A stretch of 64,000 nt of DNA from Chitinophaga pinensis (GTDB lineage: Bacteria > Bacteroidota > Bacteroidia > Bacteroidales > GCA-2748055), in assembly GCA_945863035.1 (NCBI GenBank), contig CAMAZH010000001.1, positions 64,420-128,419 on the forward strand. The letters are read 5' to 3'. The stretch's first letter is position 1; every line of letters begins with the position of its first letter. Under the pieces are notes generated by a model. That model was given only the letters and a program-made list of their open reading frames with translations, was not told where the DNA came from and did no database searches. The position numbers and the translations under genes are program-made. This document shows, one piece after another, positions 3,722-54,080 of the stretch.

Positions 3722-3852
3722 TTGCTTTTTATTCTTTAATCCTCCTACGTGTTCTCCTTCGGAGGATGCGAAGGAAGTGGTTAAACTCCCCGATCCTCTG
3801 CATCGGAAATAAAGAGTCCAGAGTTTTACTCCGGGGTTTAATACCATTTATT

Positions 3853-10089: not shown

Positions 10090-10163
10090 AGTATTAGGTT
10101 TATAGTTAAATAAGAGTTTTGATATTTTCAATAAAATTTTTCCTGTATGCGAAATGCTCAGAA

Positions 10164-27079: not shown

Positions 27080-30000
27080 CTACCGGGTAACATTTACAAT
27101 CTGTTTTGAATTTATACTGATTAAACGGCAGGACTTAATAGAACAGGGACCAGATAGTCCGGCATCGAATAGATTCTTACTTACGGCATTCTTTAGTACG
27201 TGGTTATCATCGTTTGCATTTCTGAATTCTTCATAATGCATGAAGTAGGATACTCTTTCCTCAAGGGGAAATTCCATATCACGAACAATCCTGTTATTCC
27301 AGGTATTGGTAACTTCAATCACCAATCTGTTTTCCCCATGCATTAATGCATTTGTGATATCAACCACAAAAGGACTGGTCCAAGCAAGGCCTGCATCCTT
27401 CCCATTCAGTTCCACACGGGCAATATTATCAACTTTCCCAAGGTCGAGATAATAAAGATATTCTTTGTCAACTGGATTATTATCGAAATCGAAGGTGGTT
27501 TCGTATCTTGCCGTACCTGAAAAGTGCTTTACATCTGGATTATCATGTTTTGTTAATGAAAACAGGGTATCGGTTAAAATTGAAAAATCCTTTTCAATGC
27601 CTTTGTTTGCCTCAAAAGAAATTTTCCATCTGCTCTTGATTGGAAAACTACATAAACTGTCATTAATTTCAATATTTTCTCCTGAACCGTCTGAAAACAC
27701 CAATTCATAATTGCCAGCTTGACTAACCGTGAGAACCGGTTGATCAGCCGGACAAAAAGAGGTATTATACAGTTTGCTGTTTGCTGCCAATGATATTGGA
27801 ACCGAGTTGTATTTAAACGAAGTGAGATGTTTCTGCTTTTTAAAAGCTTTACCAAAGATGATAAATATTGATTCATAAGGTGCTAAGTCTAACCGTAATG
27901 TAACCCTTTCATCTTCAATGGTGTAGGCGTAAACCTTTTGTATTGTTTTGGTCTGCGGATTCCAGATCTCAGGTATTTTGCCACTTTGCCTGAAACTGCA
28001 TTCTATTTTTCTAACACAGTTCTGTTGATTTGAAATGAAATAAATATCCTCATTGTTAAACTTCTTATGTATGAATTTCATCGAGTCATTTTCATTAAAA
28101 ATCAAATCTGGTTGGATTTTCTCTTTTACTAGTACGTTTTCGAGTGTTTCACCCCAATATACTTGCCCCTTGCCATACACATGTGTGGTAATTTCCTTCC
28201 CGTTGCAATCTCCCCATACGGCATTAACTAATTTCTTAAATTCCTTGCTGTTTGAATCATGATTCATTAGCCCAAGGACATCAGCGGGTTTAGGACCAAC
28301 TACTATTAAACCTGCACTTACAAATTCCTCCATTTTTTTTATTAGTTCAATGCTGTATTTCCCATTACCCAGGAAGGATTCATCCGGCAAAATCAAAATT
28401 TTATGGGATGCACCATTGGGCAGCGTTAATTTTCCGTTTTCAATATAAGCAAGATTCAAAAGTGCATCTGCATTAATTGACAAATAGTGATATCCTTCGG
28501 GAATTTCAACATTAAGCTGATCGGGGAGAAGTCCACGATTCGGGATATCCATACCGGTGAAACACAAGATATCGGCCATCTGATATCCTTTCTGAAGAAT
28601 TGACTGGCAGGTAGTAATATAATCGATCCATGCCCTCGACTGATTCCACCAGGTTTGTCCCCTGTTAAAATGCAGACCGATATGATCCAGAGTTGCGCCC
28701 GGTTGTTTTCCGACAAAAGGCTGCTGGACATAAACATGAAAGAAGATCTTGTTAACTCCTTTACAGAAATTATAATCACCCTGTGCTTTTAATGCAAAGG
28801 GGTGTTCGTACCATTTTGATTCCAGATCAGTGAATGATTCTGCCTGAACTATATTCCGGTTATAGATGTGTGCGGCCGATGCAGCTTCAAGAATATCTTC
28901 GGGTTTGTCGTAAGGTGAGGGATCGTCCCGCCAGAATTCACCCATGGGCAAGTCTGTATATTTATGGTGAAGCATTCCATCAGAGATCATCACAGGGCCG
29001 GTCGCCTCCGCAGAGAAAAGGACACCCTTCTCATGAGCCATGGCAGCCAACTTTCCATAAAAATTATCATTCATCAATTCGGCAATGGTAAGCCTGAAAT
29101 CATACAAGAAATTTTCATATTCTTCCAGTGAACCGACAGGTATGCCAATCAATACAGGCAACCAGGGAAGAGGGTCATAGCCCCTTCTTTGTTGAAACTC
29201 AGTGATTAATTTGTCTGTCCAATTTTGGGTACAGGCTTCCCAGCTATCTACATGTATCAGGGGAAGAGCCTTGCCGACCTTATCACTTCTTATTTCTTTC
29301 ATGGTTCTGCTGAGCCACCCATCAAACAAGATGCGGGTAGCCTCTTCACTCAGTTTATCTGATTCCAGTCCCTTTCCTCCTCCACCGGTTTCATTCTCTT
29401 CACCGGTGATGGTATATCCCAGCCTTAGTAAGGTCCACTTTCCCGCTGGCACATTCCAATGTATTACTCCAGTAGAATCAAGGAGCTCAGACACATTAAT
29501 AATTTCTTTTGGATCGATTGAGATACATACCGGATCAATCGTCTTGCATTGCGGAGCTATCCTGCTCCGAAATGCTGCTTTTGCCTCGATGTGATCTATC
29601 CAAGGAAAGGGAGACAACTCAATTTCGCTTAAGTTCAGCAATTTCTGGGTTGACCCTACATACCTCATGGTAACAGGCAAATCAACTCCGGTATCAAACA
29701 GAAATCTGAATACTTTGGCCGTAGTTTCCGGAATCCGGAATGTAACCGGACAACCATCCTCTTGCCATGAATGCTGATCGGGTTCCAGGTGTGCGACCGG
29801 TTTGAAATTCTGGCCATCCTGGCTTACCTGGACTTCCATTGATGCTGCATAGAAGGGATATCCCATCCAGGAGCCGATTGGGGAAAAAATACGAATCGAA
29901 CGACACAGAAACGGCTCCTGAAATGTAATTTGAAAATAATTCTGTCCCTCTGCCTGTATTGCCTGATCTTTCACATTACCATCAAATAGTCTCCGGACAT

Positions 30001-30634
30001 CAAGTCCCGGAATATTGGACTGACATGAAAAGTTATACTCCGAAATTCCTTTGGATATCCCTTTAATATCAGGAATGGCATAACAAGCTATATCTTTATA
30101 ATACCTGTGCTCCGCTTTCAGCTCTTCGCCCAAATTCTGATATGTCCCTGAGAATAATGGAGGCATCGGGACATTATAACCAATCTGCTGTCCTCCTTCA
30201 ACAGTTGATATACTCCAGACTAGTTTTTTCATACTCAATTCAGGACTGATCATTGGCCCACCTGCTGTAGCCCATCCATCGCATGCACTCATACCAATCT
30301 GAATATCAATCCTTTTTGCTTCAGTAAAAGTATGTCTGATCAGATCCCACCATTCAGGACTCATCTGTTCATAAGCCCTTTCAAGCCCTTTGCGGTGAAT
30401 GGTATCTCCGATAAACATCATCATAGCTCCGCCAATACCAATATTCTTCATCGCCTCGAGATCGGCAGTAATGCCTTCTTTTGTAACATTCCCATTCATC
30501 CAGTACCAATAAACCCAAGGCATTGCATCAGGCGCCGGATTATAAAATGCCTTCTTCAACTTCTGATGGTCAGAAGAGCAGGAAATAAACAGAATAATCA
30601 AGCAAAAATAAATCAGCGTTCGCATATATGGCAT
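27080..30634 (-). CDS. GH106-like glycoside hydrolase (alpha-L-rhamnosidase-type family), possible lipoprotein
   Basis: The N-terminal motif is AMPWVYWYWMNGNVTKEGITADLEAMKNIGIGGAMMMF. The C-terminal sugar-binding-like block is FSGTARYETTFDF..LDLGKVDNIARVELNGKDAGLAWTSPFVVDIT..ENRLVIEVTNTWNNRI. From memory, these are hallmarks of the roughly 1100-aa GH106 family; this needs dbCAN confirmation. Possible lipobox LFISC. An alternative start is the ATG at 30625 (MRTLIYF). Confidence 0.65.
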   Translation of the reverse strand: MPYMRTLIYFCLIILFISCSSDHQKLKKAFYNPAPDAMPWVYWYWMNGNVTKEGITADLEAMKNIGIGGAMMMFIGDTIHRKGLERAYEQMSPEWWDLIRHTFTEAKRIDIQIGMSACDGWATAGGPMISPELSMKKLVWSISTVEGGQQIGYNVPMPPLFSGTYQNLGEELKAEHRYYKDIACYAIPDIKGISKGISEYNFSCQSNIPGLDVRRLFDGNVKDQAIQAEGQNYFQITFQEPFLCRSIRIFSPIGSWMGYPFYAASMEVQVSQDGQNFKPVAHLEPDQHSWQEDGCPVTFRIPETTAKVFRFLFDTGVDLPVTMRYVGSTQKLLNLSEIELSPFPWIDHIEAKAAFRSRIAPQCKTIDPVCISIDPKEIINVSELLDSTGVIHWNVPAGKWTLLRLGYTITGEENETGGGGKGLESDKLSEEATRILFDGWLSRTMKEIRSDKVGKALPLIHVDSWEACTQNWTDKLITEFQQRRGYDPLPWLPVLIGIPVGSLEEYENFLYDFRLTIAELMNDNFYGKLAAMAHEKGVLFSAEATGPVMISDGMLHHKYTDLPMGEFWRDDPSPYDKPEDILEAASAAHIYNRNIVQAESFTDLESKWYEHPFALKAQGDYNFCKGVNKIFFHVYVQQPFVGKQPGATLDHIGLHFNRGQTWWNQSRAWIDYITTCQSILQKGYQMADILCFTGMDIPNRGLLPDQLNVEIPEGYHYLSINADALLNLAYIENGKLTLPNGASHKILILPDESFLGNGKYSIELIKKMEEFVSAGLIVVGPKPADVLGLMNHDSNSKEFKKLVNAVWGDCNGKEITTHVYGKGQVYWGETLENVLVKEKIQPDLIFNENDSMKFIHKKFNNEDIYFISNQQNCVRKIECSFRQSGKIPEIWNPQTKTIQKVYAYTIEDERVTLRLDLAPYESIFIIFGKAFKKQKHLTSFKYNSVPISLAANSKLYNTSFCPADQPVLTVSQAGNYELVFSDGSGENIEINDSLCSFPIKSRWKISFEANKGIEKDFSILTDTLFSLTKHDNPDVKHFSGTARYETTFDFDNNPVDKEYLYYLDLGKVDNIARVELNGKDAGLAWTSPFVVDITNALMHGENRLVIEVTNTWNNRIVRDMEFPLEERVSYFMHYEEFRNANDDNHVLKNAVSKNLFDAGLSGPCSIKSCRLISINSKQIVNVTR

Positions 30635-30656: not shown

Positions 30657-32864
30657 TTATTGGATCATCTGCCTGTAAAGTTCCTGGTCATATTCTTCCA
30701 GACCAAAAATACCATTCAGCTGGCTGGTCGTAACCCAAGGCAGCCAGCCGCGGTGGAGTCCATTGCCGCGCACGGGAGCTAAACTCCAGTGCTCCTGTTG
30801 CCATCCGGGTCCGTTCAAATCGTATAGTCTGCCAGGAATTGCAAGCATTTGCTTGGTATTGTGCAATAATATTTCTGATACTTCCAGATAATGGTCATCA
30901 TTAGTGTATTTAGCCATTTTGGCAAATTCGTCAACATCGAACGCCATGTAGCAATCGGTAAGAGAATGACCTGATGATATCAGCTGCAATCCAACGGTGG
31001 AATTGCCCCTTTTCCATTGTAATTGTTCATCTTTACTATCAGAAGGCATGGGAACATTCCAGGCATATATCCAGGTTTCAGAAAAATCAGCAGCCATTTG
31101 AGCTCTCCTGAGCCATTTTTTGTTTTTTGTATGTTCGTAAAGCATGATATAAGCTTCGAGCGAAAGTGTTCCAGCTTCCTTGTCGATCACATCAGGGTTA
31201 TCAATGGTTCCTCCCACAAAGACGCCATGGATTTGTCCGGAATCCCAGCAATAATCAGCGGCTTTTACAGCAGCATCAAGATAATTTGTTTGGCCGGTTG
31301 CCTTGCTCATCAGAATTAGAAAAGGTACTGCATTATAACTTGCCGAAGCAGATTTTTCTGCAACTTCCCCGGTCCCGACTATCCATTTTCGGGGGAAACC
31401 GCCTTCGCTGTTCTGCTGGGTTAATAACCAGTCGGCAAACGATTTGTTCCAGGCAATATATTCCTTGTAATGGTAACTGCCCGAACCTTCTCTTAATACG
31501 GCTTTCATCATGGCTTTCAGGTCATCGCCAAACGAGCGCAGATAGACCTGGCCGGGAGTCAGTGCTATAGTAAACTCCCCCGTTTCCATATTAAAACCTT
31601 CTCCAACTGGTGGATTTAGAGGCATACGGATAAAACTGTCAAAGATCCTGTAGGCCAATTCCCGGTATTTAGCGGCATTGGGATTTGCGGAATCAAGACT
31701 TCCATACAGCAGATAATTGGATACCTCGAGAGCTTTGCCAACAAATCCGAGGATTGTTTGTCTTGCATAATCCTTGCTTTCATTTTTTGCGGCTGATTGG
31801 TAAAGCCGTATTCCGGCATGATTGGGAGTAACCTGAATTAATCCAGCGAGCATATCAAGCATGCTTGTTTTAGCTAACTCGATATCCTGTTTGATTACAC
31901 GGGGTTTCAAAGTTTGCCATGCCCATCGCCAGGCTTTAACATAGAATTCAGAAAAAGTTTTTTCGTCTGAAAACCGGAAAGAAACAGAATATGTTTGTTC
32001 AAAGCCATTTATTACAGGATGATAACGCCTGCGCCATTGGTGCTTTTGTCCGTTGGGATAGGTTGCTCCCTGATAGGTATATTCTCCTTCGGAACAAGGG
32101 AAGTGATATCCAATTGCATAAAAGCCATCCTTATTGACAAGACCAACGGCTCCCAATAGCACTTGATGATTTATGAGAGTTTTACATTCAATGTCCTGTG
32201 AATCCAATGTATCTGTTTCTCCGTTTGGCAGAGGATTGAGTATCGTAACAGCCGACATGTCATTTGCCAGTAATCCCAGCATTGGAGAAGGTAAACGGTC
32301 TTCTCGTATCCAGAGCGTTCCCTTTCCTGCTAAATATAAATCTTTGCCACCAATAGCTGAATCCGTAAGATGCGCAGTGCTTCCGTAAATCATGCCAGGG
32401 GCAAAAATATTCACATCCTCCCTTGCAAATTTCTGAGCGGTTTTTAACTCAACTGATGAAAGAAAGCCTTCATTACTATTTCCTTCAACCTTCACTTTTC
32501 GCTTCAGGAAAAGGATGTTTTCCGAAATCTTCCATTCATCATTAAAAATATAAGATGCGGAAACTGTAGTAACTGTTGCTTTTCCTTTAAAACCAGAACC
32601 AGACTTTTCGTAGCTGCTGTAGCCTGAAAATAGTTTAGTGATTGAATCTTCAGAATGATAAATTTCAACTCCACATGCCGGTGAAGGCGAAACTGCATTT
32701 AATGATTGATTGTCAACTGAGATATCCCATCTGCCTTCAGAATTCTTTTGCAGTATTACTCTTGCCCCGTTTTCCAGCCTCCCAAGGTTTTCTCTTTCGG
32801 TGCATGATTCGAAAGCGAACATAGCCAATATTGCCGAGCTGATTATGATGTTTTTAATCTGCAT
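30657..32864 (-). CDS. Unknown lipoprotein-like protein: beta-rich N-terminal half plus alpha/alpha-toroid-like C-terminal half (candidate uncharacterised CAZyme)
   Basis: Signal with Cys: MQIKNIIISSAILAMFAFESC. The C-terminal half has helix-repeat character and a LLTQQNSEGGFPRKW motif that resembles the Q-x-x-x-G-G-F/W motif of alpha/alpha-toroid (terpenoid-cyclase-like) repeats. Also YLDAAVKAADYCW and SLEAYIMLYEHTKNKKWLRRAQMAADF. I could not assign a family by eye. Confidence 0.75.
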   Translation of the reverse strand: MQIKNIIISSAILAMFAFESCTERENLGRLENGARVILQKNSEGRWDISVDNQSLNAVSPSPACGVEIYHSEDSITKLFSGYSSYEKSGSGFKGKATVTTVSASYIFNDEWKISENILFLKRKVKVEGNSNEGFLSSVELKTAQKFAREDVNIFAPGMIYGSTAHLTDSAIGGKDLYLAGKGTLWIREDRLPSPMLGLLANDMSAVTILNPLPNGETDTLDSQDIECKTLINHQVLLGAVGLVNKDGFYAIGYHFPCSEGEYTYQGATYPNGQKHQWRRRYHPVINGFEQTYSVSFRFSDEKTFSEFYVKAWRWAWQTLKPRVIKQDIELAKTSMLDMLAGLIQVTPNHAGIRLYQSAAKNESKDYARQTILGFVGKALEVSNYLLYGSLDSANPNAAKYRELAYRIFDSFIRMPLNPPVGEGFNMETGEFTIALTPGQVYLRSFGDDLKAMMKAVLREGSGSYHYKEYIAWNKSFADWLLTQQNSEGGFPRKWIVGTGEVAEKSASASYNAVPFLILMSKATGQTNYLDAAVKAADYCWDSGQIHGVFVGGTIDNPDVIDKEAGTLSLEAYIMLYEHTKNKKWLRRAQMAADFSETWIYAWNVPMPSDSKDEQLQWKRGNSTVGLQLISSGHSLTDCYMAFDVDEFAKMAKYTNDDHYLEVSEILLHNTKQMLAIPGRLYDLNGPGWQQEHWSLAPVRGNGLHRGWLPWVTTSQLNGIFGLEEYDQELYRQMIQ

Positions 32865-35929: not shown

Positions 35930-38548
35930 TTATTTGACCATTAATTTGTGAGAAGAAAAAGAGGCGTCCCCTTTTAATGTTAATAAGTAAATTCCTGTAT
36001 GGAGTGAAAAACTGATTGTTTTCATTCCGGTAAAAGATTCTTCATTTTTAAAAACAGATCTTCCCAGAGAGTCAAAAATTGTAATTTCATCCACACTTAT
36101 ATTATTAGAGTTCAATGTTACCTGGTCCTTTGCAGGATTCGGATAAACATCAATCAATTCATTCAGGTTTTTTTTTTCAATCCCTGTTGGAACATGGAAG
36201 GTCAGTTTGTTAATATTAAACCCGCCCGAAGAATTTATAACATAAATTTTCATGACATACCTGCCTGCATCCAGGTACATTCTTTTTCTAATGTTTGTCC
36301 ATGATTGTACTCCCCCGGTATTATTAACAGTGAGTTGGCCGGTCTTGTTAATTCCGTTAAACTCTAGCTGGAATTTATTGTTGTCTGATGCTGAAGCAAC
36401 CCTGATATCGACGTAAATCAGGCCTGATTGAGTAACATCCACGGTGTATTCAAGCCTTTCCCCGGTGGATATCCAGCCAACGTTATATCCTCCTCCTTCA
36501 TCTGATGTGTTTTCGATGTCTACATGAGTAATGCGATATTGACCGCCGTTGTTAATTTCATCAGAATCAAAATAAGCATCATCGGGACAACCCAGGTCGA
36601 AATCCTCTGCTTCAATTATCCCTGGAATAGATAGTGTTTTAAAGGGTAAACGTTGATCGGAACATACAATAAATGAATAAACAGGAGGACAGAAGGGGAA
36701 TGACTGAAGTGATTTTTTTGAGTAATGGATTTCCAACTTATCAGCACTATTATTTACGCTTACAAATTCAGCTCTGTCAACAGAGGAACATCGTTTACCG
36801 TCGTGCCACTGGTGGTAAATAACCAGCATTCCGCTACTGTCGGGAGTAGTGGTAAAACTGCAATGGCCCGGGCCTGTTTTCCCATCCCACATGATGGGAT
36901 TGCCGGGATTAAGGGTCCAGGGACCAGCCGGGCTGTCTGCCGTAGCATATCCTATACCATAATTGTTACCCGTACCATTGCCCGAGTAAACCAGGTAATA
37001 CTTGTTTTTATGTTTAAGCATTTGGGGTGCTTCGCGCACGCATTCGGTAATCCAACCTTCAGGGTGGGTGCCGTCGCCAAGGCAATGTTTTGGTGATGTA
37101 ATGGCGGAGAGGTCACTGTTTAATTCGCCCATCCATATGCCTGATGTTCCGCCGCATCCGCCCTCATTCCAATAGATATATTCCTTTCCGTCATCGTCCT
37201 GGAAAAAATGGGAATCTATCGACCACCTGTCGAGGAGCGGACCCGCATGATGTTTAAAAGGGCCGGCAGGGGAGGAGGCTTTTGCAATATACAGCCTGGT
37301 GTCTTGCGTATAAAACATATAGAACAGCCCATCTTTTTTTCTCTTCGAGACCTCCGGGGCCCAGGTCATTCCTATATCTCCAGGGGTATCCAGCACATTA
37401 CCCAATACATCCCAGTTAACCAGGTCTTTTGAGCGTGATGTGCGGCGATTGGTATTATACAAATAATAATATCCATCGCCCTTATGATAGCAGATGCCTG
37501 GATCTGGTGATTCTGTGTGGATAACGGGATTGGCAAAAGAAAGATACCGGTCGCAGGTGCCATGTGCACTATCCGGACAGGCAGAAGGTTCACCGGTTGC
37601 CACAGGTATTCCGAAAACAGGAATATCGTCTTTGAAATAGAATTCCTGCATTCGGGCATCCCGGGTGGCAAATCCGTTCCTGTTGTTTTCATATTTTCCG
37701 TGATATACCAGCCACCATTCACCACCTGGTGTCTGAAGGCACGAATGGTGCCCCACTGCATATGCATTATTACCGGGGAATTTCTGAAAAACGGGTTGGG
37801 CCGACTTGCTCCAGGATGAAGGATCCATGTAATTACTTCCAACAGCTGCGCTAAGCATTCCCAAACAGTAATTTTCGTAATGGCATTGACTGGCCGAATA
37901 TACAATGTGCAATTTGTTGCCATGAAGTAAAAATTCAGGACCTTCGTTAACGTTGCTTACTTGTTTTTCCCAACTGTACATTGGATAGGAAAGACGAACA
38001 GGGCTTCCATCAAGTGTGTAAGGGTTGCTCATTTTCGTCATCCAGATTTCCTGTCCTGCTGAGCCATCCATTTTTGACCAGGCCATATAAATCTGCTTAT
38101 TGTCAGGGTCTTGCCAAACCGTGGCATCAATGCCATTGCTTAATGTTGAAAATTGAGATTTCAGTGTATAGGAACCTAAAGCATCCTGTGAATTGCCTTC
38201 GAGTACAATGATATTGAACCAGAAATTTCCCGTATTGAAGCAAGTGTAAATATACCATTTGCCATTCAGATAATGTATTTCCGGTGCCCAGATATCAGGT
38301 TTTCCGCCCCATACACTTTTCGATTCTCCCTTGAAAATATCCTGAAGAGTAAGCGACTTATAGATCCGTACATCACCACCGGTAGTATGACAGCCATAGT
38401 AGAAACCTTCTTTATACATTACAAAGGGATCGGGGGCATCACCGCTTTTTAAGGGATTGGTGAAGTTACATTGTGCTGCCAATTGCTCTATTGACAAAAA
38501 AATAAGGAGAATAATTGTTAAAAAATTCAATTTCATTTTCAGAGGCAT
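35930..38548 (-). CDS. Secreted protein with two tandem GH43-like catalytic modules, a CBM6-like module and a T9SS sorting domain
   Basis: Module 1: GDAPDPFVMYKEGFYYG, IWAPEIHYLNGKWYIY, NEGPEFLLHGNKLHIVYS. Module 2: ESPDPGICYHKGDGYYYLYNT, TWAPEVSKRKKDGLFYMFYT, REAPQMLKHKNKYYLVYSG. CBM6-like: IPGIIEAEDFDLGCPDDAYFD. Sorting domain: VYPNPAKDQVTLN..GIYLLTLKG. An alternative start is the ATG at 38536. Confidence 0.85.
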   Translation of the reverse strand: MPLKMKLNFLTIILLIFLSIEQLAAQCNFTNPLKSGDAPDPFVMYKEGFYYGCHTTGGDVRIYKSLTLQDIFKGESKSVWGGKPDIWAPEIHYLNGKWYIYTCFNTGNFWFNIIVLEGNSQDALGSYTLKSQFSTLSNGIDATVWQDPDNKQIYMAWSKMDGSAGQEIWMTKMSNPYTLDGSPVRLSYPMYSWEKQVSNVNEGPEFLLHGNKLHIVYSASQCHYENYCLGMLSAAVGSNYMDPSSWSKSAQPVFQKFPGNNAYAVGHHSCLQTPGGEWWLVYHGKYENNRNGFATRDARMQEFYFKDDIPVFGIPVATGEPSACPDSAHGTCDRYLSFANPVIHTESPDPGICYHKGDGYYYLYNTNRRTSRSKDLVNWDVLGNVLDTPGDIGMTWAPEVSKRKKDGLFYMFYTQDTRLYIAKASSPAGPFKHHAGPLLDRWSIDSHFFQDDDGKEYIYWNEGGCGGTSGIWMGELNSDLSAITSPKHCLGDGTHPEGWITECVREAPQMLKHKNKYYLVYSGNGTGNNYGIGYATADSPAGPWTLNPGNPIMWDGKTGPGHCSFTTTPDSSGMLVIYHQWHDGKRCSSVDRAEFVSVNNSADKLEIHYSKKSLQSFPFCPPVYSFIVCSDQRLPFKTLSIPGIIEAEDFDLGCPDDAYFDSDEINNGGQYRITHVDIENTSDEGGGYNVGWISTGERLEYTVDVTQSGLIYVDIRVASASDNNKFQLEFNGINKTGQLTVNNTGGVQSWTNIRKRMYLDAGRYVMKIYVINSSGGFNINKLTFHVPTGIEKKNLNELIDVYPNPAKDQVTLNSNNISVDEITIFDSLGRSVFKNEESFTGMKTISFSLHTGIYLLTLKGDASFSSHKLMVK

Positions 38549-38551
38549 AAA

Positions 38552-39841
38552 TTATTTTAAAAACTCAATTTTCTGCAACACCATTCCGTAATGACTTCCC
38601 GGTGGATTTTCTTTTATCTTCACGCCGTTCCAGTCGGTTGCGAAATTGCCCGAATACATAAGCCATGCTGTTTTTCCGTCATTGCTGATGAATTTTGAAG
38701 GGATATTCAGGAAATAAGCCTGTTGTCCAAAATCCTTCATATAGGTAACCAGTTTCCATTCGTCGGTCAGCTTATCTGATTCCATGATGTAGGAATTCAT
38801 TTTGGAGCATGTATTTCCTCCATCGGTAACACACATCAGGTATTTTTTAAGCGGAGCATTGTAGGTTACCGTAACGCAACCCATGTTATTGTTCCATTCG
38901 AGCAGGGGCTTAATCTTATTAAAGTCGCTAGTCCAAACTGGATTTCCGTTTTTATCGTTTCCCGCAAAGAATTCGTATTTACTAATGTCGTTTATATTTT
39001 CAATAGTAGGTGTTACACGAAACAAGTATATCTGGTCGCCGGTTATCCATGATGCGTTGTAAAAACGAGGTTGCGTGTCGTTAATATCGGCGCCATGGGC
39101 CACCAGATATGCTTTCCCATCGGGTGAATGTTGCATGTTTTTGCCAAAATCGACAAAATGTGGCGACCCTATTTTTACAGGAAATCCATTCAGTCCTGTT
39201 TCGTTAAAAACAGGTTTTTCGGGTGTGTGCTCACATTCCTTCCAGGAACGTCCAAAATTGGTTGAATAGCGGAAACCCACAAACGGGCCAATCCATGGCC
39301 AGTTGTAAACCATATTTCCGTAACGGGTTGAACCTGCCGGGTCAAGGCAATAGGTACCATAATACCATACTCCGTTGTAAACCAGACTGCCACAAGGATA
39401 TCGCCCGTGATAAGGCAATGATGTGGCATGTGAAAGGCCAAGGCTATAAATATTCAGTTGTAGAGGATCATCCCCTTCAATAACAGCCTGCCCCGTTGAG
39501 GTGCGTTCCAGGCCATATCCCTGAGGAGCATTTCCATCGGAGATTGAAAGATCATTCCCTCCATCTAAGCGGGGACAATGGCCATCGGTATAAGGGGAAT
39601 ATAATTTATCGTCTTCAGCCCATGAAGGATACCAGGTATCAGCTACATGAAAACCGCTTTTGAGACCGGGAAATTTAATTCCGGTTAACTCTTTCGATTG
39701 TTCAAACGGACAATCTGCAGGCGTTTCCGACCTCCAAACAAAGGGTTTATAGCTTAATGTGTCGGGCTTAACCTGTGAGTATGCAATATTCACAAACAGC
39801 GAACAGAAAGTGTAAAGCTTTATAAAACCTGATTTTTTCAT
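38552..39841 (-). CDS. Secreted hypothetical protein, probably beta-propeller-like; function unknown
   Basis: Signal MKKSGFIKLYTFCSLFVNIAYSQ. The composition is rich in beta-strand/Trp-Tyr segments: WYPSWAEDDKLYSPYTDG, GSLVYNGVWYYGTYC, GFRYSTNFGRSWKE, SPDGKAYLVAHGA, TAWLMYSGNF. Its ATG overlaps the stop of the upstream gene (ATGA at 39838..39841). No family assignment is possible by eye. Confidence 0.75.
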   Translation of the reverse strand: MKKSGFIKLYTFCSLFVNIAYSQVKPDTLSYKPFVWRSETPADCPFEQSKELTGIKFPGLKSGFHVADTWYPSWAEDDKLYSPYTDGHCPRLDGGNDLSISDGNAPQGYGLERTSTGQAVIEGDDPLQLNIYSLGLSHATSLPYHGRYPCGSLVYNGVWYYGTYCLDPAGSTRYGNMVYNWPWIGPFVGFRYSTNFGRSWKECEHTPEKPVFNETGLNGFPVKIGSPHFVDFGKNMQHSPDGKAYLVAHGADINDTQPRFYNASWITGDQIYLFRVTPTIENINDISKYEFFAGNDKNGNPVWTSDFNKIKPLLEWNNNMGCVTVTYNAPLKKYLMCVTDGGNTCSKMNSYIMESDKLTDEWKLVTYMKDFGQQAYFLNIPSKFISNDGKTAWLMYSGNFATDWNGVKIKENPPGSHYGMVLQKIEFLK

Positions 39842-41685
39842 TTTTCAATTTTGCTTTTTGCAATATAGTGATAATTAAACCTTCTGTCCGGTGCTGATTC
39901 ACCATTCAGAAAGAAAGCGCTGATGTCTTTCAAATCGGCCGGATTATCAGCCCAATGGAAATAGAAATCAGGTAAAGCAGAAATGCCAATACTTTTCTTT
40001 GGAATACTGATTTCCATTTCTGTGCCTTTCATTCTGAAACTTCCTGTTCCGGTTTTTTTCCAATCTTTCCCGCTCCACGATTTGACACTTGTTTTTTCTC
40101 CATCTTTTTTGCCATAATTGATTACATAATCATAGCCTTCCCAACCTGTTTTTTGATCCTTATCAGAATCGATGAATAAAAGCATCCAATTCTGGTCTTG
40201 GCAGGAAGTAAGGCCATTGGCTGTTCTTACATAGAAATAGATATTTTCTTCATCGAAGGTGACTTTTGAGTTGGTAATGTCGTTGCGACCGGAAGTGTTT
40301 ACCAGTATTTCGCTGTTATTCACGTTCATAAAATTACGGTGCTGGCAATCACCTTCGGGATCAATGAAATCGGGAGCAACATCATTCCATTCCGAAAAAG
40401 CCCCATCAATTATGATTGTTTTTGCAGGGGAGGCGGACTCTTGTTTGCTCAAACCTTTAAACTTTCTGATATGCGAAACCATCTGGTAATAATACGCATC
40501 AGTGTAACCGCCTGTCATAGGTTCAATATCCCGATTGAACTCCATGTTGAATTCATCAACAAAAAACCATCCGTGGGGAATATGGTTACCGAGCGAGTCT
40601 TTTGAAAGGCAAATGGCCTGGTTGACACATCGCCACGAAGGATCGTTCCATTGTTTGCGCATAAAAGGATGCGGGGCATTGGCTGATGAAGGCCAGGCTG
40701 CGGCCGTGAGTTCATTCCAGCCGGTAATGCAGATAATTTGTGGATTTACTTCATGTGCCCTTGCCCATTGTTCTTCAAAAAAATTTCCTTGCGGCGTTTG
40801 ATCACTTAACCAATATTTGTCATATGGAGGAGTATAGCTGGTTGTCGAGCTTGATCCTTGCAATTCAGCATTCCATAGTGGAGACCCCATCGATTTTGTA
40901 ACTGAAATCTGCTCAGCAATCCCGTTACGGAAAAAGGCATCCTGGGGAACACTGTCGAGGAAGTTCCACTGTTTGGGTTCGAATGCCCACGTATAGCGCC
41001 AGGTAAACATGTTCTGAACCAATTCCTCCCTGCAACGTTCACATTGTTTTTTGCATTTTTCGCCACTTGCCATGATCAGGGGTTTGCCTTCCCACATAAA
41101 AATAAGTGGGTTATATTCAGGTTTGTTGTAAAAGTTATCCAATAAGCAGTTCATGGCAGCGTTGTAGCCTTCATTCAGAAAGAAAACAATTTTGGGAACA
41201 GGAATTTTTTGCTTATGCATTTCGAGCGCAACAGTCATAAAATTGCTGAGGGATTTGCAGCCCTGATCGCCGTTGGTAAAATCAATAAAGATGAAGTCAA
41301 CACCGGCATTGGCAAGCATTTGAAGATTTCTGCGGGTGCTCCAGGGATCAGAAGGGTGGTAGAATCCGTTTTCAGGCTCGCACCAATAATAATCCGAACA
41401 TTCAAAGGCGGGACTTTCAGGGTTTTCGTTAATCAGTTCCTGCACTATCTTTTGTTTTCCGTCTTTTAAACGCACATAAGGATGCCAGAGCCAGTAGAAT
41501 ACCCCGATGTATTTATCCGGTTTGGATTCGTCCGATTCAATATATGTCGGGAGAACTCTCCCAAGTCCGTCAGTGGCAACCCAATTGTCGCTGTATGCCT
41601 TAATTGGGGGAGTATTCTGGCCACATATCAGCCTGGCCGAAAACAGTAGTATTATGGCAGAAAGTAATGATAAATTCTTTTTCAT
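39838..41685 (-). CDS. Secreted protein of the same unassigned GH-like family as 25145..26923
   Basis: Signal MKKNLSLLSAIILLFSARLICGQ. Shared motifs: SDNWVATDGLGRVLP, IGVFYWLW, WCEPENGFYHPSDPWSTRRNLQMLANAGVDFIFIDFTNG, ITGWNE, EFNRDIEPM, SGRNDITNSK..LLFIDSDKDQKTGWEGYDY, GESAPDRRFNY. Confidence 0.8.
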   Translation of the reverse strand: MKKNLSLLSAIILLFSARLICGQNTPPIKAYSDNWVATDGLGRVLPTYIESDESKPDKYIGVFYWLWHPYVRLKDGKQKIVQELINENPESPAFECSDYYWCEPENGFYHPSDPWSTRRNLQMLANAGVDFIFIDFTNGDQGCKSLSNFMTVALEMHKQKIPVPKIVFFLNEGYNAAMNCLLDNFYNKPEYNPLIFMWEGKPLIMASGEKCKKQCERCREELVQNMFTWRYTWAFEPKQWNFLDSVPQDAFFRNGIAEQISVTKSMGSPLWNAELQGSSSTTSYTPPYDKYWLSDQTPQGNFFEEQWARAHEVNPQIICITGWNELTAAAWPSSANAPHPFMRKQWNDPSWRCVNQAICLSKDSLGNHIPHGWFFVDEFNMEFNRDIEPMTGGYTDAYYYQMVSHIRKFKGLSKQESASPAKTIIIDGAFSEWNDVAPDFIDPEGDCQHRNFMNVNNSEILVNTSGRNDITNSKVTFDEENIYFYVRTANGLTSCQDQNWMLLFIDSDKDQKTGWEGYDYVINYGKKDGEKTSVKSWSGKDWKKTGTGSFRMKGTEMEISIPKKSIGISALPDFYFHWADNPADLKDISAFFLNGESAPDRRFNYHYIAKSKIEK

Positions 41686-48588: not shown

Positions 48589-51500
48589 ATGAATAGACAG
48601 AAAAAAACCAATCGGAGTTTTTCACTACATAATAATCTCACGATTATTCTCATTGCCCTTTCATGTTCCTTTCTACAGGAGACTTTCTCCCAGTCAAAAG
48701 ATATTAAGTTTCGCCGGTATACTGCTGATGATGGTTTAATGCATAACACTATTTGCTCTGTTGTACAGGATAAAAAGGGTTTTATATGGATTGGTACCGG
48801 GGGAGGTGGGTTATCAAAATTTGACGGAAGAAGTTTTACTAATTACAGCAATGAGAAAAATAAACAAGGAAGCCTGGGGGGAAATACTGTGTTTTCATTA
48901 TTACTCGACAGTCGGGGAGTGCTCTGGGCAGGTACCCTTGATGGCGGAGTAAGCAAATACATACCTGAAACGAATTCCTTTGTTGTTTTTAATCATTCAG
49001 ACAATAATCCTGGAACTATTGATAACGATTATGTCCGCACTCTTTTCGAGGATAGCGAAGGAACGATATACATAGGCACATTAACAGGACTTAATTTGCT
49101 CGATCCGGTAAGTGGTAAAATTACCAGGGTTAATTGCAGAGAGCAAGGACAGATTTTTTCAATCATTGAAAATGATAAAAAGCAAATTATTATCGGTTCC
49201 AACATGGGCTTACTTTACCTTGATAAAAAATTAAATGAACTTATTCCTTATTCATTTTCAGATAAAAAATTATCGGGGCTGGTTCAGGACATATTTCCTA
49301 TGATTCAGGATAGCAAAGGAAGCTACTGGCTTGGCACTAATAAAGGTCTTGTTAAAATTTCCGATCTTGATGAGGAAATCTACGAGCATTTCCCTTATGA
49401 TCCCATGAATCCTAATTCAATGCTGACTAATACGGATATCCGTGTTATACAGCAAGACAAGGAAGGGAAAATATGGATAGGGAGTGATAAGGGCCTTAGT
49501 TATCTGGATCCTGTTACAACTGATTTCCGACATTATCAGAATAAGGTTGATGACCCGCTTAGCCTTAGTGATAATAGCATATATGATATTTTTATAGATA
49601 ATTCAAACAATTTCTGGATAGGGACAGCAAACAACGGGCTTAATTTCTTTACAACCCAGGATCCGAAATTTGAAATTTACCAGCATATTATCGGTGAGTC
49701 AAATTCTCTGAATAATAATATAATAAACTGCTTCGCAGAGTACAATGATATGCTCTACATCGGTACATTGGGGGGCGGGTTAAACTCGCTGAACAAGAGA
49801 ACAGGAAAGTATAAATTCTATACCTACGAAGGAAAGGATGTGAATTCAATTAGCAGTAATAATATTCCTGTGGTATATCTCGATCATGATAAAAAATTAT
49901 GGGTTGGTACTATGGATAATGGGTTAAACCTGTTTGATGAACAAACAGGAAGGTTCAAACGCTTTTTTGAAGGGTCAAGGGTGCTTTCCGTTATCGATGA
50001 TGATAATCCTGAATATCTGTGGATTGCCAATTTCACGCGTTTGATCAAAATGCATAAGAAGACAGGGAAATTTGTATCCTTTCAAAGCGGCCCCCAGGCA
50101 GATAGCCTGAATCCATTTCCAACACTTGTTTACAAAACCTCTGATAAAAGATTGTGGATCGGGAATAACGATAAAACCGGGTTGGCCTGGTTTGACGAAT
50201 TAAATAAGCGGTTTGTCAATTATAGTAATATAAAATCAGATACCAATAGTCTGAGTAACGATGCAGTTATATCAATGTGGGAAGATATTGATGACCATCA
50301 ATTATGGATTGGTACAAAAGACGGCCTGAATACATTCGATTATCTTAATAACAGGTTTAAATTATATACAACTAACAATGGCTTGCCATCCAACAATATT
50401 TCCGGAATAATCCAGGATAACCAGGGAAATATCTGGATTAGCACTCATCATGGACTCTCCTGTTTTAATAAATCCACCGGAGAATTTAAGAATTACTCGA
50501 AAGAAGACGGACTGCAGGGAGTCGAATTCAGTTTAAATGCTTGTTTCAAAGCAGATGACGGGAAACTTTATTTTGGCGGAAAGAATGGTTTTAACACTTT
50601 TTATCCGGAGAATATTAAAATTGATTCTGTTGTTTCTCCTATTGTATTTACGGGTTTTTACATTAACAATCAACCAGCCAGCTTTGGAGGAAAGGACTCT
50701 GTTCTGAGGTATCACATTACTGAAACAAAAGAAATTACATTACTTTATAAACAGCGTTCATTCAGCATTGAATTTGTCGCTTTGAATTTTCTGGCTCCAA
50801 ACAGCAGCAGGTATGCATATAAACTTGAAGGGTTCAATGAAGACTGGCTGGAAGATCAGTCTTCAAACAAAGCTGTTTTCACAAACGTGCCTGCAGGCGA
50901 ATATGTTTTTCTCGCTAAATCATCAAATGGTGACGGAATATATAACGAAAAACCTATTAAGCTCAATATTTCTGTTCTTCCCCCTGTATGGAAAACAATC
51001 TGGGCTTACGGGTTATATTCACTTGTAATTATTCTGACTCTCGGTCTTTTTGCAAAATACCTTAATGATACAGCTTCAAAGAAACAAAGAATTAAAATTC
51101 AAAAACTTAATGATCAGAAAGAGAAGGAAATTGCTCATCTGAAAATTGAGTTTTTCACCAATATTGCCCACGAGATCAGGACCCCGCTGACCTTAATTAG
51201 TGGCCCACTAGAACGATTAATCAAATCCGGAAACAATTCTGCTGAAATTCAGGAAGAATATGAGCTCATGCATAAGAACACCCGTCATTTAATGAAACTT
51301 GTTAATCAGTTAATGAATTTCAGGAAAATTGAGGATAATAAATACACCCTTAACTATAGCAGAGTTAATATTGTAGAAATTCTCAGGGAATTATATACCA
51401 GGTTTACGCCATTGGCAAGACAGAAAAATCTGGATTTCCATTTCGTATCTGATTTTGAGTTTATTGAAATCACACTGGATTATGAATTGCTTATCAGCGC

Positions 51501-52722
51501 AGTAAGCAATCTTTTGACAAATGCCTTTAAATTTACCAAATCAACAATTGAATTATCACTTACGAAATCAGTTGATGGTATCGCCGGTACATTTGTAAAT
51601 AATTCAGTATTGATCAGCGTCAGGGATGATGGTTTGGGAATTCCACAGGAAAAGTTGAAAATGATTTTTGATCCTTTCTTCCAGATTAAGGATAGAAAAG
51701 AAGAAAATCCGTCTTTTTCAGGAATTGGCCTGGGTTTATCCTATACCAAATCAATTGTGGAATTGCATGCTGGAATATTGCGCGTGGAATCTACACCTGG
51801 ATTTGGATCGAAGTTCACTATTGAATTGCCTGACAAAAATATTGAGGCAGTACCAAATCAATCCTTCGGATTGAATATCCATAATGATATTAATGAATTT
51901 GTGACAGACCTTATTCTTAATGGTTCAGATAACAAAGAAAATGGCTCCAGGGGTGTTTTTCTTACATCTGCTCATTCAGAAATCCTGATTGTTGAGGATA
52001 ACGATGATCTACGCATGTTTTTATCCAAACAGCTCCAGAGAGAATATATAATTCACCTTGCAGAGAATGGCTTAAAGGCACTTGAAATTCTGAAAAAACG
52101 TGAAATTGAACTCATCATTACAGATGTAATGATGCCTGAAATGGATGGGATTGAATTATGCAAACAGGTTAAAAATACTTTTGAAACCAGCCATATTCCT
52201 TTAATTATCCTTACGGCTAAAGCAACAATAGATTCCAAAGTTGAGGGAACAGAAACCGGCGCAGATGCCTATGTTGAAAAACCGTTTTCATTTGAGTATC
52301 TCTCTGCTTTGATTAAGAACCTGATCGAAAACAGGGCAAAGCTAAAAGCAAAGTTTATGCAGCAACCTTTATCAAATCCGATTGAAATCGCTAGTTCAAA
52401 AGCAGATGAAAAATTCCTGAATACAATCCATGAATTAATTATGGCAAACCTCAGCAATCCGGATTTTTCGATAGACGAGCTGGCACAGTCAATTTCTATA
52501 AGCCGTTCAGGTTTCCATAAAAAGCTGAAAGGCATTTCCGGGCTCACTCCAAATGATTATATAAAACTTATCCGTCTTAAAAAAGCAGCAGAACTCTTAA
52601 AAGAAGGTCAATTGAGAGTAAACGAGATTTGCGATATGGTCGGCTTTAATTCTCCTTCATATTTTTCCAAGTGCTTCCAGGAGCAATTTGGCATGCTTCC
52701 CAGTGATTTTGCCAGAATGTAA
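48589..52722 (+). CDS. Hybrid two-component system sensor kinase/response regulator with AraC-type output (second HTCS)
   Basis: Propeller-type sensor repeats: FIWIGTGGGGLSKF, LWAGTLDGGVSKY, YWLGTNKGLVKI, IWIGSDKGLSYL, FWIGTANNGLNFF. TM segment IWAYGLYSLVIILTLGLF. H-box FFTNIAHEIRTPLTLISG. HATPase: VRDDGLGIP..GIGLGLSYTKSIV. Receiver: ILIVEDNDDL..LIITDVMMPEMDGIEL..VEKPFS. AraC HTH: SRSGFHKKLKGISGLTPNDY..SPSYFSKCFQEQFGMLPSDF. Confidence 0.92.
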   Translation: MNRQKKTNRSFSLHNNLTIILIALSCSFLQETFSQSKDIKFRRYTADDGLMHNTICSVVQDKKGFIWIGTGGGGLSKFDGRSFTNYSNEKNKQGSLGGNTVFSLLLDSRGVLWAGTLDGGVSKYIPETNSFVVFNHSDNNPGTIDNDYVRTLFEDSEGTIYIGTLTGLNLLDPVSGKITRVNCREQGQIFSIIENDKKQIIIGSNMGLLYLDKKLNELIPYSFSDKKLSGLVQDIFPMIQDSKGSYWLGTNKGLVKISDLDEEIYEHFPYDPMNPNSMLTNTDIRVIQQDKEGKIWIGSDKGLSYLDPVTTDFRHYQNKVDDPLSLSDNSIYDIFIDNSNNFWIGTANNGLNFFTTQDPKFEIYQHIIGESNSLNNNIINCFAEYNDMLYIGTLGGGLNSLNKRTGKYKFYTYEGKDVNSISSNNIPVVYLDHDKKLWVGTMDNGLNLFDEQTGRFKRFFEGSRVLSVIDDDNPEYLWIANFTRLIKMHKKTGKFVSFQSGPQADSLNPFPTLVYKTSDKRLWIGNNDKTGLAWFDELNKRFVNYSNIKSDTNSLSNDAVISMWEDIDDHQLWIGTKDGLNTFDYLNNRFKLYTTNNGLPSNNISGIIQDNQGNIWISTHHGLSCFNKSTGEFKNYSKEDGLQGVEFSLNACFKADDGKLYFGGKNGFNTFYPENIKIDSVVSPIVFTGFYINNQPASFGGKDSVLRYHITETKEITLLYKQRSFSIEFVALNFLAPNSSRYAYKLEGFNEDWLEDQSSNKAVFTNVPAGEYVFLAKSSNGDGIYNEKPIKLNISVLPPVWKTIWAYGLYSLVIILTLGLFAKYLNDTASKKQRIKIQKLNDQKEKEIAHLKIEFFTNIAHEIRTPLTLISGPLERLIKSGNNSAEIQEEYELMHKNTRHLMKLVNQLMNFRKIEDNKYTLNYSRVNIVEILRELYTRFTPLARQKNLDFHFVSDFEFIEITLDYELLISAVSNLLTNAFKFTKSTIELSLTKSVDGIAGTFVNNSVLISVRDDGLGIPQEKLKMIFDPFFQIKDRKEENPSFSGIGLGLSYTKSIVELHAGILRVESTPGFGSKFTIELPDKNIEAVPNQSFGLNIHNDINEFVTDLILNGSDNKENGSRGVFLTSAHSEILIVEDNDDLRMFLSKQLQREYIIHLAENGLKALEILKKREIELIITDVMMPEMDGIELCKQVKNTFETSHIPLIILTAKATIDSKVEGTETGADAYVEKPFSFEYLSALIKNLIENRAKLKAKFMQQPLSNPIEIASSKADEKFLNTIHELIMANLSNPDFSIDELAQSISISRSGFHKKLKGISGLTPNDYIKLIRLKKAAELLKEGQLRVNEICDMVGFNSPSYFSKCFQEQFGMLPSDFARM

Positions 52723-53138: not shown

Positions 53139-54080
53139 ATGGATAGTTTCTTTAAATATCTTACACCTGCAAGAGAAGATGAAAAATGGGGACTATTTTT
53201 AAAGGTTGCCGGACGAGAGGTTATTTCTCAAAAAGCCAAATACCCTACCAATACACACCCTAACAATTACTTCTTTATTTGGGATAACGGTAGGGTACTG
53301 AATGAATTCCAGATTAATTATATTACAAAAGGTTCTGGAGTATATGAAGATGCTTCAGGAAAATATGCAGTGAGACAGGGATCAATCCTGATAACTAAAC
53401 CTGGCGTATGGCATAGGTACCGTCCGGATTTCAGAACAGGATGGACTGAGAATTACATTGGATTTGATGGTTCCATTGCAAAGGCACTCATTATGAATCC
53501 TATGTTTTTTGACAATAAGCCTATAATACATATAGGAGAGCGTGAAGAATTCGTTGACACCTATCAAAAGCTTTACGATTACATTTTGGAAGAAAAGCCA
53601 GGTTATCAGCAAGTTTCTGCAGGAATGATTATGAAGTTGTTGGGCTATATTGTTTCGTGCAAAAAACAAGGATCCTTTTCCGGAAAAAGAATCGAAAAAA
53701 TCATACAGGAGGTTTGCTTTTACATCCGTGAAAACCTGGAAAAGGATTTGGATTTTAAGAAGATCGCAGATGATCATAACCTTGGATATTCATATTTCAG
53801 AAAAATGTTTAAGAAATACACAGGAGTTCCTCCTGTAAAATATCATCTTGATCTGAAATTAATCCGGGCAAAAGAAATGATTCTCTCCTCAAATAAAATT
53901 ATTAAAGAAATTAGCTATGATCTTGGATTTCAGTCCATTTATTATTTCAGCAGGGCTTTTAAGAATAAGATGGGGGTTTCTCCTATCGAAATCAGGCAGT
54001 GTCAGAAAAGTATCGAAAGCGAGAAGATAAGAAACGCTACCTACCATGAAAAGTTGCCTTTGGAAATGGAATGGGTGTAA
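53139..54080 (+). CDS. AraC-family transcriptional regulator (cupin-like sensor domain plus HTH)
   Basis: The N-terminal cupin-like block is FQINYITKGSGVYEDASGKYAVRQGSILITKPGVWHRYRP. The C-terminal AraC HTH is LGYSYFRKMFKKYTGVPPVKYHLDLKLIRAKEMI..GFQSIYYFSRAFKNKMGVSPIEI. It sits 123 nt upstream of the second transporter gene on the same strand. Confidence 0.88.
   Translation: MDSFFKYLTPAREDEKWGLFLKVAGREVISQKAKYPTNTHPNNYFFIWDNGRVLNEFQINYITKGSGVYEDASGKYAVRQGSILITKPGVWHRYRPDFRTGWTENYIGFDGSIAKALIMNPMFFDNKPIIHIGEREEFVDTYQKLYDYILEEKPGYQQVSAGMIMKLLGYIVSCKKQGSFSGKRIEKIIQEVCFYIRENLEKDLDFKKIADDHNLGYSYFRKMFKKYTGVPPVKYHLDLKLIRAKEMILSSNKIIKEISYDLGFQSIYYFSRAFKNKMGVSPIEIRQCQKSIESEKIRNATYHEKLPLEMEWV

Follow-up and report, generated by a model that had tools for sequence, protein, structure and literature searches.

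A 64,000-nucleotide stretch of DNA deposited as Chitinophaga pinensis (contig CAMAZH010000001.1, positions 64,420 to 128,419; the whole stretch is referred to below as the window) encodes three paralogous proteins that probably represent an unclassified glycoside hydrolase (GH) family, one that branches off within the GH99/GH71 superfamily, has a rebuilt catalytic centre and acts on rhamnose-containing glycans. Paralogue 1 (39838..41685, 615 aa), paralogue 2 (25145..26923, 592 aa) and paralogue 3 (3853..8226, 1457 aa) all lie on the reverse strand, and "the family" denotes here the protein family to which these three open reading frames (ORFs) belong.

A preliminary description of this DNA, made from the letters and their translations, had reported three copies of a two-domain protein sharing a colinear set of motifs, and BLASTP bears this out: paralogue 1 matches paralogue 2 over its full length at 38% identity (E = 9e-146) and residues 7-636 of paralogue 3 at 29% identity (E = 1e-78). 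The family region of paralogue 3 (approximately residues 20-640; 6307..8169, reverse strand) is followed by a C-terminal extension (3853..6306, reverse strand) in which Pfam recognizes two CBM6/CBM35 carbohydrate-binding modules (CBM_6, E = 4.5e-21, two stretches), a PA14 domain (E = 1.6e-7) and the sorting domain of the type IX secretion system (T9SS) (Por_Secre_tail, E = 1.8e-15). The translations of all three begin with a hydrophobic signal sequence. In an alignment of 82 family members, most of the motifs WVATDxLGR, GxFY, WxEPExGYYxSxDPW, VDFxFxDxTN and WNE, and likewise most of EFNRD, GRNDI, DxDxxxxTGWEGYDY and APDRRFN, fall on invariant or near-invariant columns. Paralogue 3 has EFSGD instead of EFNRD and APQTRLSY instead of APDRRFNY, and retains YNEWWA (an E-x-x-A arrangement), DFTN and the Asp of VFIDMF. 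The three copies are distributed over three distinct clades of the family and are therefore old paralogues rather than recent duplicates. Copies of two of the three types are present on a related contig belonging to a metagenome-assembled genome (MAG; contig L059), and a protein 100% identical to paralogue 1 is encoded on an ENA contig (ERZ27280308 k141_256685).

Structure prediction, which the preliminary description had proposed as a check, revealed the barrel it had anticipated. The AlphaFold2 model of paralogue 1, built from the 82-member alignment (pLDDT 91.4, pTM 0.92), has two domains behind the signal peptide, a plan that paralogue 2 shares. The first is a (beta/alpha)8 barrel of alternating strand and helix elements (residues ~28-415; 40441..41604, reverse strand), which is also the part matched by GH99 in profile and Foldseek comparisons. 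The second (residues ~418-610; 39856..40434, reverse strand), described earlier as a distinct beta-rich domain, is a CBM9-like beta-sandwich: modelled in isolation it reached a pLDDT of 91.8, and its best Foldseek matches were the CBM9 structures 7nwo and 1i82, followed by the glucodextranase 1ug9 (E 1e-3 to 4e-3, probability 1.0). R450, R467-N468-D469, W500 and the DxDxxxxTGWEGYDY motif are strongly conserved in this domain, and it should therefore be seen as integral to the protein rather than as a loosely attached module.

Sequence profile and fold agree on the nearest relatives of the family. A profile of the 82-member alignment searched against all PDB sequences retrieved GH99 enzymes only (best match BtGH99, 4acy, E = 9.4e-8), with the motifs PExGxYSSxDP, GKPL and FNEW colinear between the two. 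Foldseek comparison of the full paralogue 1 model with PDB entries up to April 2026 ranked GH99 first (among the matches 4ad1 and 4acz; E ~1e-5, probability 1.0, TM (target) ~0.5, 12-15% identity) and GH71 next (9fnf, 9m6l and 8yfh; E ~1e-4), the match to 9fnf (E = 9e-5) having an rmsd of ~20 A across both domains; the top matches were confined to these two families. By either method, no PDB structure up to that date was closer than GH99. The GH99/GH71-style barrel proposed in the preliminary description is thus upheld, and the family is a genuine yet distant branch of the GH99/GH71 barrel superfamily. In Pfam and NCBIfam scans of the three paralogues, no family model for the barrel region reached its cut-off. 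The sole Pfam signal of the GH99 kind among them was a weak PF16317 match in paralogue 2 (17.2 bits against a cut-off of 33, E = 0.003); the Pfam scan found no PF16317 match in paralogue 1, and weak matches to this model occur in 40 of the 82 aligned members (best E = 1.7e-7). GH71 gave no Pfam match at E<=1 in the paralogues and none among the 82 aligned members, and GH71 chains were absent from the profile search of PDB sequences at E<=10. A single-sequence search of the PDB gave no match.

Members of GH99 and GH71 are endo-acting enzymes with open clefts, and both families carry a D/E-x-x-E dyad on one loop, GH99 acting as retaining enzymes via a 1,2-anhydro-sugar and GH71 as classical inverting enzymes (PMC12394665). 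In the profile alignment, the WNEWxA motif of the family falls on FNEWHEG of BtGH99. The preliminary description had singled out a conserved N-E pair as possibly catalytic: its Glu, E325 in paralogue 1 (GWNELTA, holding N324-E325 and A328; 40702..40722, reverse strand), does align with the first catalytic Glu of GH99 (E329 in BtGH99, E333 in BxGH99), but the dyad as such is not kept, as the site of the second Glu (E332 in BtGH99, E336 in BxGH99) is occupied by A328. In an independent conservation alignment of 87 sequences from genome loci, with 83 non-gap rows at the motif, N324 and E325 were found in 83 of 83 rows and A328 in 81, and E-x-x-A is present in all three window paralogues. At the homologous position, therefore, the family has neither the E-x-x-E of GH99 (E333/E336 in BxGH99) nor the D-x-x-E of GH71 (D265/E268 in AnGH71C; PMC12394665).

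With Ala at the site of the second Glu, the end of a different strand would have to supply the partner acid. The predicted barrel strands carry, at their ends or shortly after them, the invariant acidic or polar residues D113, D130, D135, N138, E258, D377, R385 and D386. D135 and N138 belong to the DxTN motif (DFTN in paralogue 1; 41272..41283, reverse strand), which ends a barrel strand and corresponds to TWWG in GH99. D377 opens the segment DEFNMEFNRD (40528..40557, reverse strand), which also contains the loop residues E382, R385 and D386 and follows the last barrel strand; in the model, strand 372-376 directly precedes D377. Either D135 or D377 is a candidate for the replacement acid. The retention of one Glu together with the exchange of its partner for Ala amounts to a natural experiment, in which an active site known for two mechanisms in GH99 and GH71 appears to have been rebuilt in a third way.

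The family is large and widespread. A word-indexed search returned >3,700 clusters at 90% identity, and HMMER, run exhaustively over 1.84 billion representatives clustered at 50% identity, found 1,478 proteins at E<=1e-30, a number that rises to 2,755 at E<=1e-10. Members are present in soil, freshwater, marine and gut bacteria. Genome matches within the Bacteroidota include Spirosoma, Fibrella, Echinicola, Polaribacter, Marinoscillum, Paludibacter and the gut genus Alistipes, and carriers beyond this phylum belong to Verrucomicrobiota, Planctomycetota, Armatimonadota, Fibrobacteres, Paenibacillus and others. Many members are fused to other modules, in the architectures GH43-CBM6-family, DUF5722-family, SLH-LamG-family and G8/CEMIP beta-helix-CBM96-dockerin-family. 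One fusion protein (P0130) has two GH43 domains, CBM6, the family region, PA14 and a T9SS domain in succession and in effect joins two genes that are separate in the window. At one comparison locus (L004), a 418-aa protein without a Pfam match, encoded two genes downstream of a family member (L004:16646..17902), carries 'SDINVTRSILQQIKNAGINTVAVDWTNP', which resembles the SxDPWVIRRNLQxLxxAGVDFLFLDxTN block of the family (hhalign E = 7e-4, probability 26%); on the strength of this likeness, the protein may represent a further remote offshoot of the superfamily.

Genomic neighbourhoods provide the link to rhamnose. All ORFs within 10 kb of a family gene at 78 genome loci from many phyla were clustered and their representatives annotated with Pfam. 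The commonest neighbour was a GH78-like six-hairpin protein (13 of the 78 loci), followed by sulfatases (12), GH106 (11), GH78 (9) and GH43 (8); SusC and SusD were also common. At least one rhamnosidase occurred in 25 of the 78 loci, often directly adjacent to the family gene and on the same strand, and a few more loci had GH78 fragments, weak GH106-like proteins or MGH1/GH78-like six-hairpins. This association is spread over several clades of the family, and five of six additional contigs with precomputed Pfam labels, taken from metagenomes and one isolate genome, agree with it. In its minimal form, a GH78 gene and a family gene stand 43 nt apart, in that order, surrounded by housekeeping genes and without SusC or SusD (L081; ENA ERZ28657224 scaffold_66); among the 90%-identity clusters this two-gene unit has the most members (247 sequences), and it is also seen in L012, L015 and L016 (Alistipes). 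More elaborate loci have the order SusD, GDSL esterase, six-hairpin, family gene (L083), or SusC, SusD, family gene, followed by esterases, GH43, GH95, GH106 and GH78-like genes (L084 and L085). The last two adjoin an FGGY kinase and LutABC, which belong to deoxyhexose catabolism. In the Echinicola isolate (L086), two SusC/D pairs are followed by the family gene, a sulfatase, GH78-like, GH78 and GH106 genes. No mannosidase families were found in the neighbourhoods of family genes, either at the 78 loci or on the Pfam-labelled contigs. The recurrence of three unrelated rhamnosidase families, of sulfatases in the marine loci and of genes for rhamnose catabolism points to glycans containing L-rhamnose as the kind of substrate.

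Judged by their conserved strand-end residues, homology to endo-acting families, secretion combined with CBMs and T9SS domains, fusion to GH43, and position after SusC/D genes, these proteins are most likely glycoside hydrolases whose substrate is a polymer or a large oligosaccharide. The three genes would accordingly be predicted to encode secreted glycoside-hydrolase-like proteins, each with its barrel packed against the CBM9-like beta-sandwich. E325 may serve as catalytic base or nucleophile-side residue, with the partner acid supplied by the invariant D135 of DxTN or by D377, replacing the second Glu. The substrates would be complex glycans containing L-rhamnose, often sulfated, acetylated or decorated with arabinose, on which the family could work with exo-alpha-L-rhamnosidases (GH78 and GH106) and GH43 enzymes. 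Where T9SS and CBM6/35 modules are present, as in 3853..8226, the protein most likely performs the first endo-type cuts outside the cell, and the short versions (615 and 592 aa) probably process imported oligosaccharides.

L-rhamnose is manno-configured: its 2-OH is axial and stands trans to the anomeric bond. A GH99-type neighbouring-group mechanism through a 1,2-anhydro-sugar (epoxide) is therefore one that the retained Glu could drive on what is a mirror-image sugar. This leads to a more specific proposal, speculative although consistent with the chemistry, which we consider unlikely: a new endo-acting family that cuts within alpha-L-rhamnose-containing backbones (rhamnans, sulfated rhamnans or rhamnoglycan exopolysaccharides) by the epoxide mechanism, with the general acid relocated to a different strand (D135 or D377) on account of the L-sugar substrate.

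Several points weigh against an unclassified hydrolase of rhamnose-containing glycans. The canonical second catalytic Glu is missing, so that a non-canonical mechanism or a loss of catalysis is possible. Hydrolase activity, endo action and a rhamnose-containing substrate are all properties that we infer. About two thirds of the 78 genome loci have no rhamnosidase within 10 kb, and the rhamnosidase counts are raw, the background rate being estimated from general knowledge rather than from a matched control. GH28, polysaccharide lyases (PLs) and GH105, which would be expected for classical rhamnogalacturonan, are all absent from the window locus. Some family genes stand beside ABC sugar transporters. 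Others (L014, L019, L037 and L043, from Fibrella, Spirosoma and Cytophagales) are found not in a polysaccharide utilization locus (PUL) but among several glycosyltransferase family 2 (GT2) genes, Wzi and a rhamnogalacturonase-A/epimerase-like PF12708 beta-helix. This setting indicates an exopolysaccharide or capsule biosynthesis cluster, and hints at a chain-trimming role for those members.

The same neighbourhoods could be read differently, with the proteins being exo-acting or oligosaccharide-specific glycosidases that remove the residue beside rhamnose (for example the uronic acid in Rha-GalA, Rha-GlcA or Rha-IdoA repeats) in alternation with a rhamnosidase. This is rather unlikely overall, even though it would suit the minimal GH78-family unit that lies outside any PUL in Alistipes-type genomes, as well as the short paralogues, which bear only a signal peptide. 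The invariant basic residues R385, K201, R407 and K410 could hold a carboxylate or sulfate group, and the exchange of Glu for Ala would lower charge repulsion. However, many members have CBMs and T9SS tails or come first after SusC/D, as surface enzymes that attack polymers typically do; endo action and an open cleft characterize GH99 and GH71, the closest relatives by structure (PMC12394665); and no uronic-acid-specific partners (GH28, GH105 or PLs) were seen.

The preliminary description could not place these proteins in a known family, and our searches support it. A position of the family outside every CAZy family is supported, but not proven, by Pfam, NCBIfam, the PDB and the literature. 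New GH families are created every year, and the one newly described GH99-like CAZy family that we found, GH195, surfaced only through full-text literature searches. According to the relevant passages of its report, GH195 is the endo-(6-sulfo)-alpha-1,3-mannanase domain of the Polaribacter protein PbSulf1-GH195 and is distantly related to GH99 (PMC13063451). Using the cloning primer given there for the neighbouring Pb1060, we recovered a near-identical metagenome contig (L080; JGI Ga0209194_1000023). Its upstream ORF (L080:11631..14045) agrees in 16 of 17 bases with the reverse primer of Pb1059 and is a near-identical, partial copy of PbSulf1-GH195. This homologue has a PF16317 match (E = 5.5e-8), a beta-helix, a T9SS tail and an intact FDEMDEG motif. 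The beta-helix is right-handed, lies between the GH195 barrel and the T9SS tail, and goes unmentioned in those passages of the report (PMC13063451). Membership of our family in GH195 was rejected, as comparing the family profile with the homologue's barrel in hhalign gave a probability of 0.3% and the homologue keeps E-x-x-E where the family has E-x-x-A; moreover, no cluster of GH92, which together with an S1_51 sulfatase marks the mannan PUL context of GH195, was among the commonest neighbours of the family. GH191-194 were rejected as unrelated, GH191 being GH114-like and GH192-194 beta-1,2-glucanases. Literature searches on GH190 and GH196-202 gave nothing that fits, and those on GH99-like families, endo-rhamnosidases, rhamnanases and rhamnan PUL enzymes gave no characterized member of the family, paywalled papers lying outside their scope. 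NCBI names for homologues are nearly all "hypothetical protein", with a few instances of "glycoside hydrolase family 71/99 protein". Since there is in addition no Pfam or NCBIfam model and no PDB structure closer than GH99, an existing CAZy assignment is unlikely, and the chance that the family already sits inside a recently created and characterized one that these libraries and papers did not reveal is small.

That the proteins are non-catalytic glycan-binding proteins, with a barrel that is a pseudo-enzyme deprived of the GH99/GH71 general acid, is very unlikely. The replacement of the second dyad Glu by Ala in 81 of 83 sequences and the joining of the barrel to a CBM9-like domain would both fit such a role. 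Against it, the acidic and polar residues at the strand ends are strictly kept over ~1,500 50%-identity clusters from many phyla, in a pattern like that of an active site; members are fused to true catalytic modules as in multi-enzyme proteins; and PULs already have SusD or surface glycan-binding proteins (SGBPs) for binding. It is highly improbable that these are ordinary divergent members of GH99, GH71 or GH195 (endo-alpha-mannanases or alpha-1,3-glucanases), for despite the proximity of GH99 by profile and fold and the few "family 71/99" labels at NCBI, PF16317 remains below its cut-off, GH71 gives no match, the dyad is lost, the comparison with the GH195 barrel gave a probability of 0.3%, and the neighbours are rhamnosidases, GH43 and sulfatases rather than GH92, GH38, GH76, GH125 or alpha-glucosidases.

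Within the window, paralogues 1 and 2 share one co-directional array that runs from 47960 down to 25145, in the order GH3, GH95-like, paralogue 1, DUF4185-like, double GH43, GH2, (alpha/alpha)6-like protein, GH106 and paralogue 2. The GH106 alpha-L-rhamnosidase (27080..30634, reverse strand; PF17132, E = 1.9e-195) is directly upstream of paralogue 2, and a second one (59313..62591, forward strand; PF17132, E = 5.7e-227) lies elsewhere in the window. The array also includes an enzyme with two GH43 domains, CBM6 and T9SS according to Pfam (35930..38548, reverse strand) and a 735-aa protein (30657..32864, reverse strand) that is a putative, unassigned glycosidase; its only matches, all sub-threshold, are to the GH127 and GH76 (alpha/alpha)6 models at residues ~518-664, and none of the 78 comparison loci has a homologue of it. 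The operon partner of paralogue 1 is a DUF4185-like gene (38552..39841, reverse strand; PF13810, E = 1.8e-7, below cut-off), whose start overlaps the paralogue 1 stop by 4 nt (39838..39841), which suggests translational coupling. A conserved pairing of these two genes was considered and rejected, as it is not kept beside the closest homologues; the L004 gene at that position is unrelated to the DUF4185-like one, although it may itself be a remote branch of the superfamily. Paralogue 3 is flanked on one side by a SusC-like gene and its T9SS protein and on the other, directly downstream, by a GH43 + CBM6 + PA14 + T9SS enzyme (Pfam; 2..3847, reverse strand).

The array is flanked at either end by a hybrid two-component regulator of the Reg_prop/Y_Y_Y-HisKA-HATPase-receiver-AraC type (20881..24951, reverse strand; 48589..52722, forward strand). 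Together with an extra AraC regulator (53139..54080), these suggest at least two separately regulated glycan-utilization units in the 64-kb window. Both SusC-like genes (10164..13124, reverse strand; 54204..57179, forward strand) are followed not by a SusD gene but by a gene for a T9SS-tailed protein of ~570 aa (8389..10131, reverse strand; 57276..58967, forward strand). These two proteins are 51% identical to each other and have no Pfam domain besides the sorting tail and no PDB relative. The pairing of a SusC-like gene with a T9SS protein of ~586 aa recurs upstream of family genes in the Bacteroidales MAG loci L002, L004, L006, L018, L051 and L067. The glycan-utilization locus also contains a gene for a T9SS-secreted CotH kinase-like protein with two lamin-tail domains, PA14 and chitobiase-C/Fn3-associated domains (13197..16691, reverse strand).

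Rhamnose-rich glycans, among them the pectic rhamnogalacturonans I and II (RG-I and RG-II), gums and arabinogalactan proteins, the green-algal polymers ulvan and rhamnan sulfate, and the exopolysaccharides of bacteria and microalgae, are abundant carbon sources. To our knowledge, many of them have few or no known endo-acting enzymes. With ~1,500 clusters at 50% identity, a wide range of habitats and repeated pairing with GH78 and GH106, the family is therefore a concrete candidate for such a missing activity and a good one for a new CAZy family of glycoside hydrolases. It makes a solid target for biochemical characterization rather than a conceptual surprise.

Four known systems resemble the family in part. 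Its C-terminal domain has a beta-sandwich fold similar to that of CBM9 (TmXyn10A, 1i82, E = 4.3e-3; C. kristjanssonii, 7nwo, E = 1.3e-3; TM 0.4-0.5), but is only 12-14% identical, has no Pfam CBM9 match and is integral rather than detachable. GH195, a family split off recently, is also distantly related to GH99, and the passages describing it present a T9SS-secreted enzyme of marine Bacteroidota PULs that cooperates with sulfatases (PMC13063451); in contrast to the family, its L080 homologue has E-x-x-E and a beta-helix, and the two show no significant profile similarity. GH71 alpha-1,3-glucanases (AnGH71C, 9fnf; Agn1p) combine a GH99-like barrel with a tightly associated C-terminal beta-sandwich (PMC12394665), whereas the family has no sequence-level match to them, lacks D-x-x-E, carries a C-terminal domain nearest to CBM9 and occurs in another genomic context. 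Closest of all, by both sequence profile and fold, is GH99 (the endo-alpha-1,2-mannosidases/mannanases BtGH99, BxGH99 and human MANEA; PF16317), with which the family shares the (beta/alpha)8 barrel, the FYYxW early strand, the PExGxYSSxDP loop, the GKPL strand and the xNEW motif with the first catalytic Glu. Yet identity is only 12-15% and the Pfam match is below cut-off, Ala replaces the second Glu and DxTN stands in place of TWWG, a CBM9-like domain has been added at the C-terminus, and the genomic partners are rhamnosidases instead of mannosidases.

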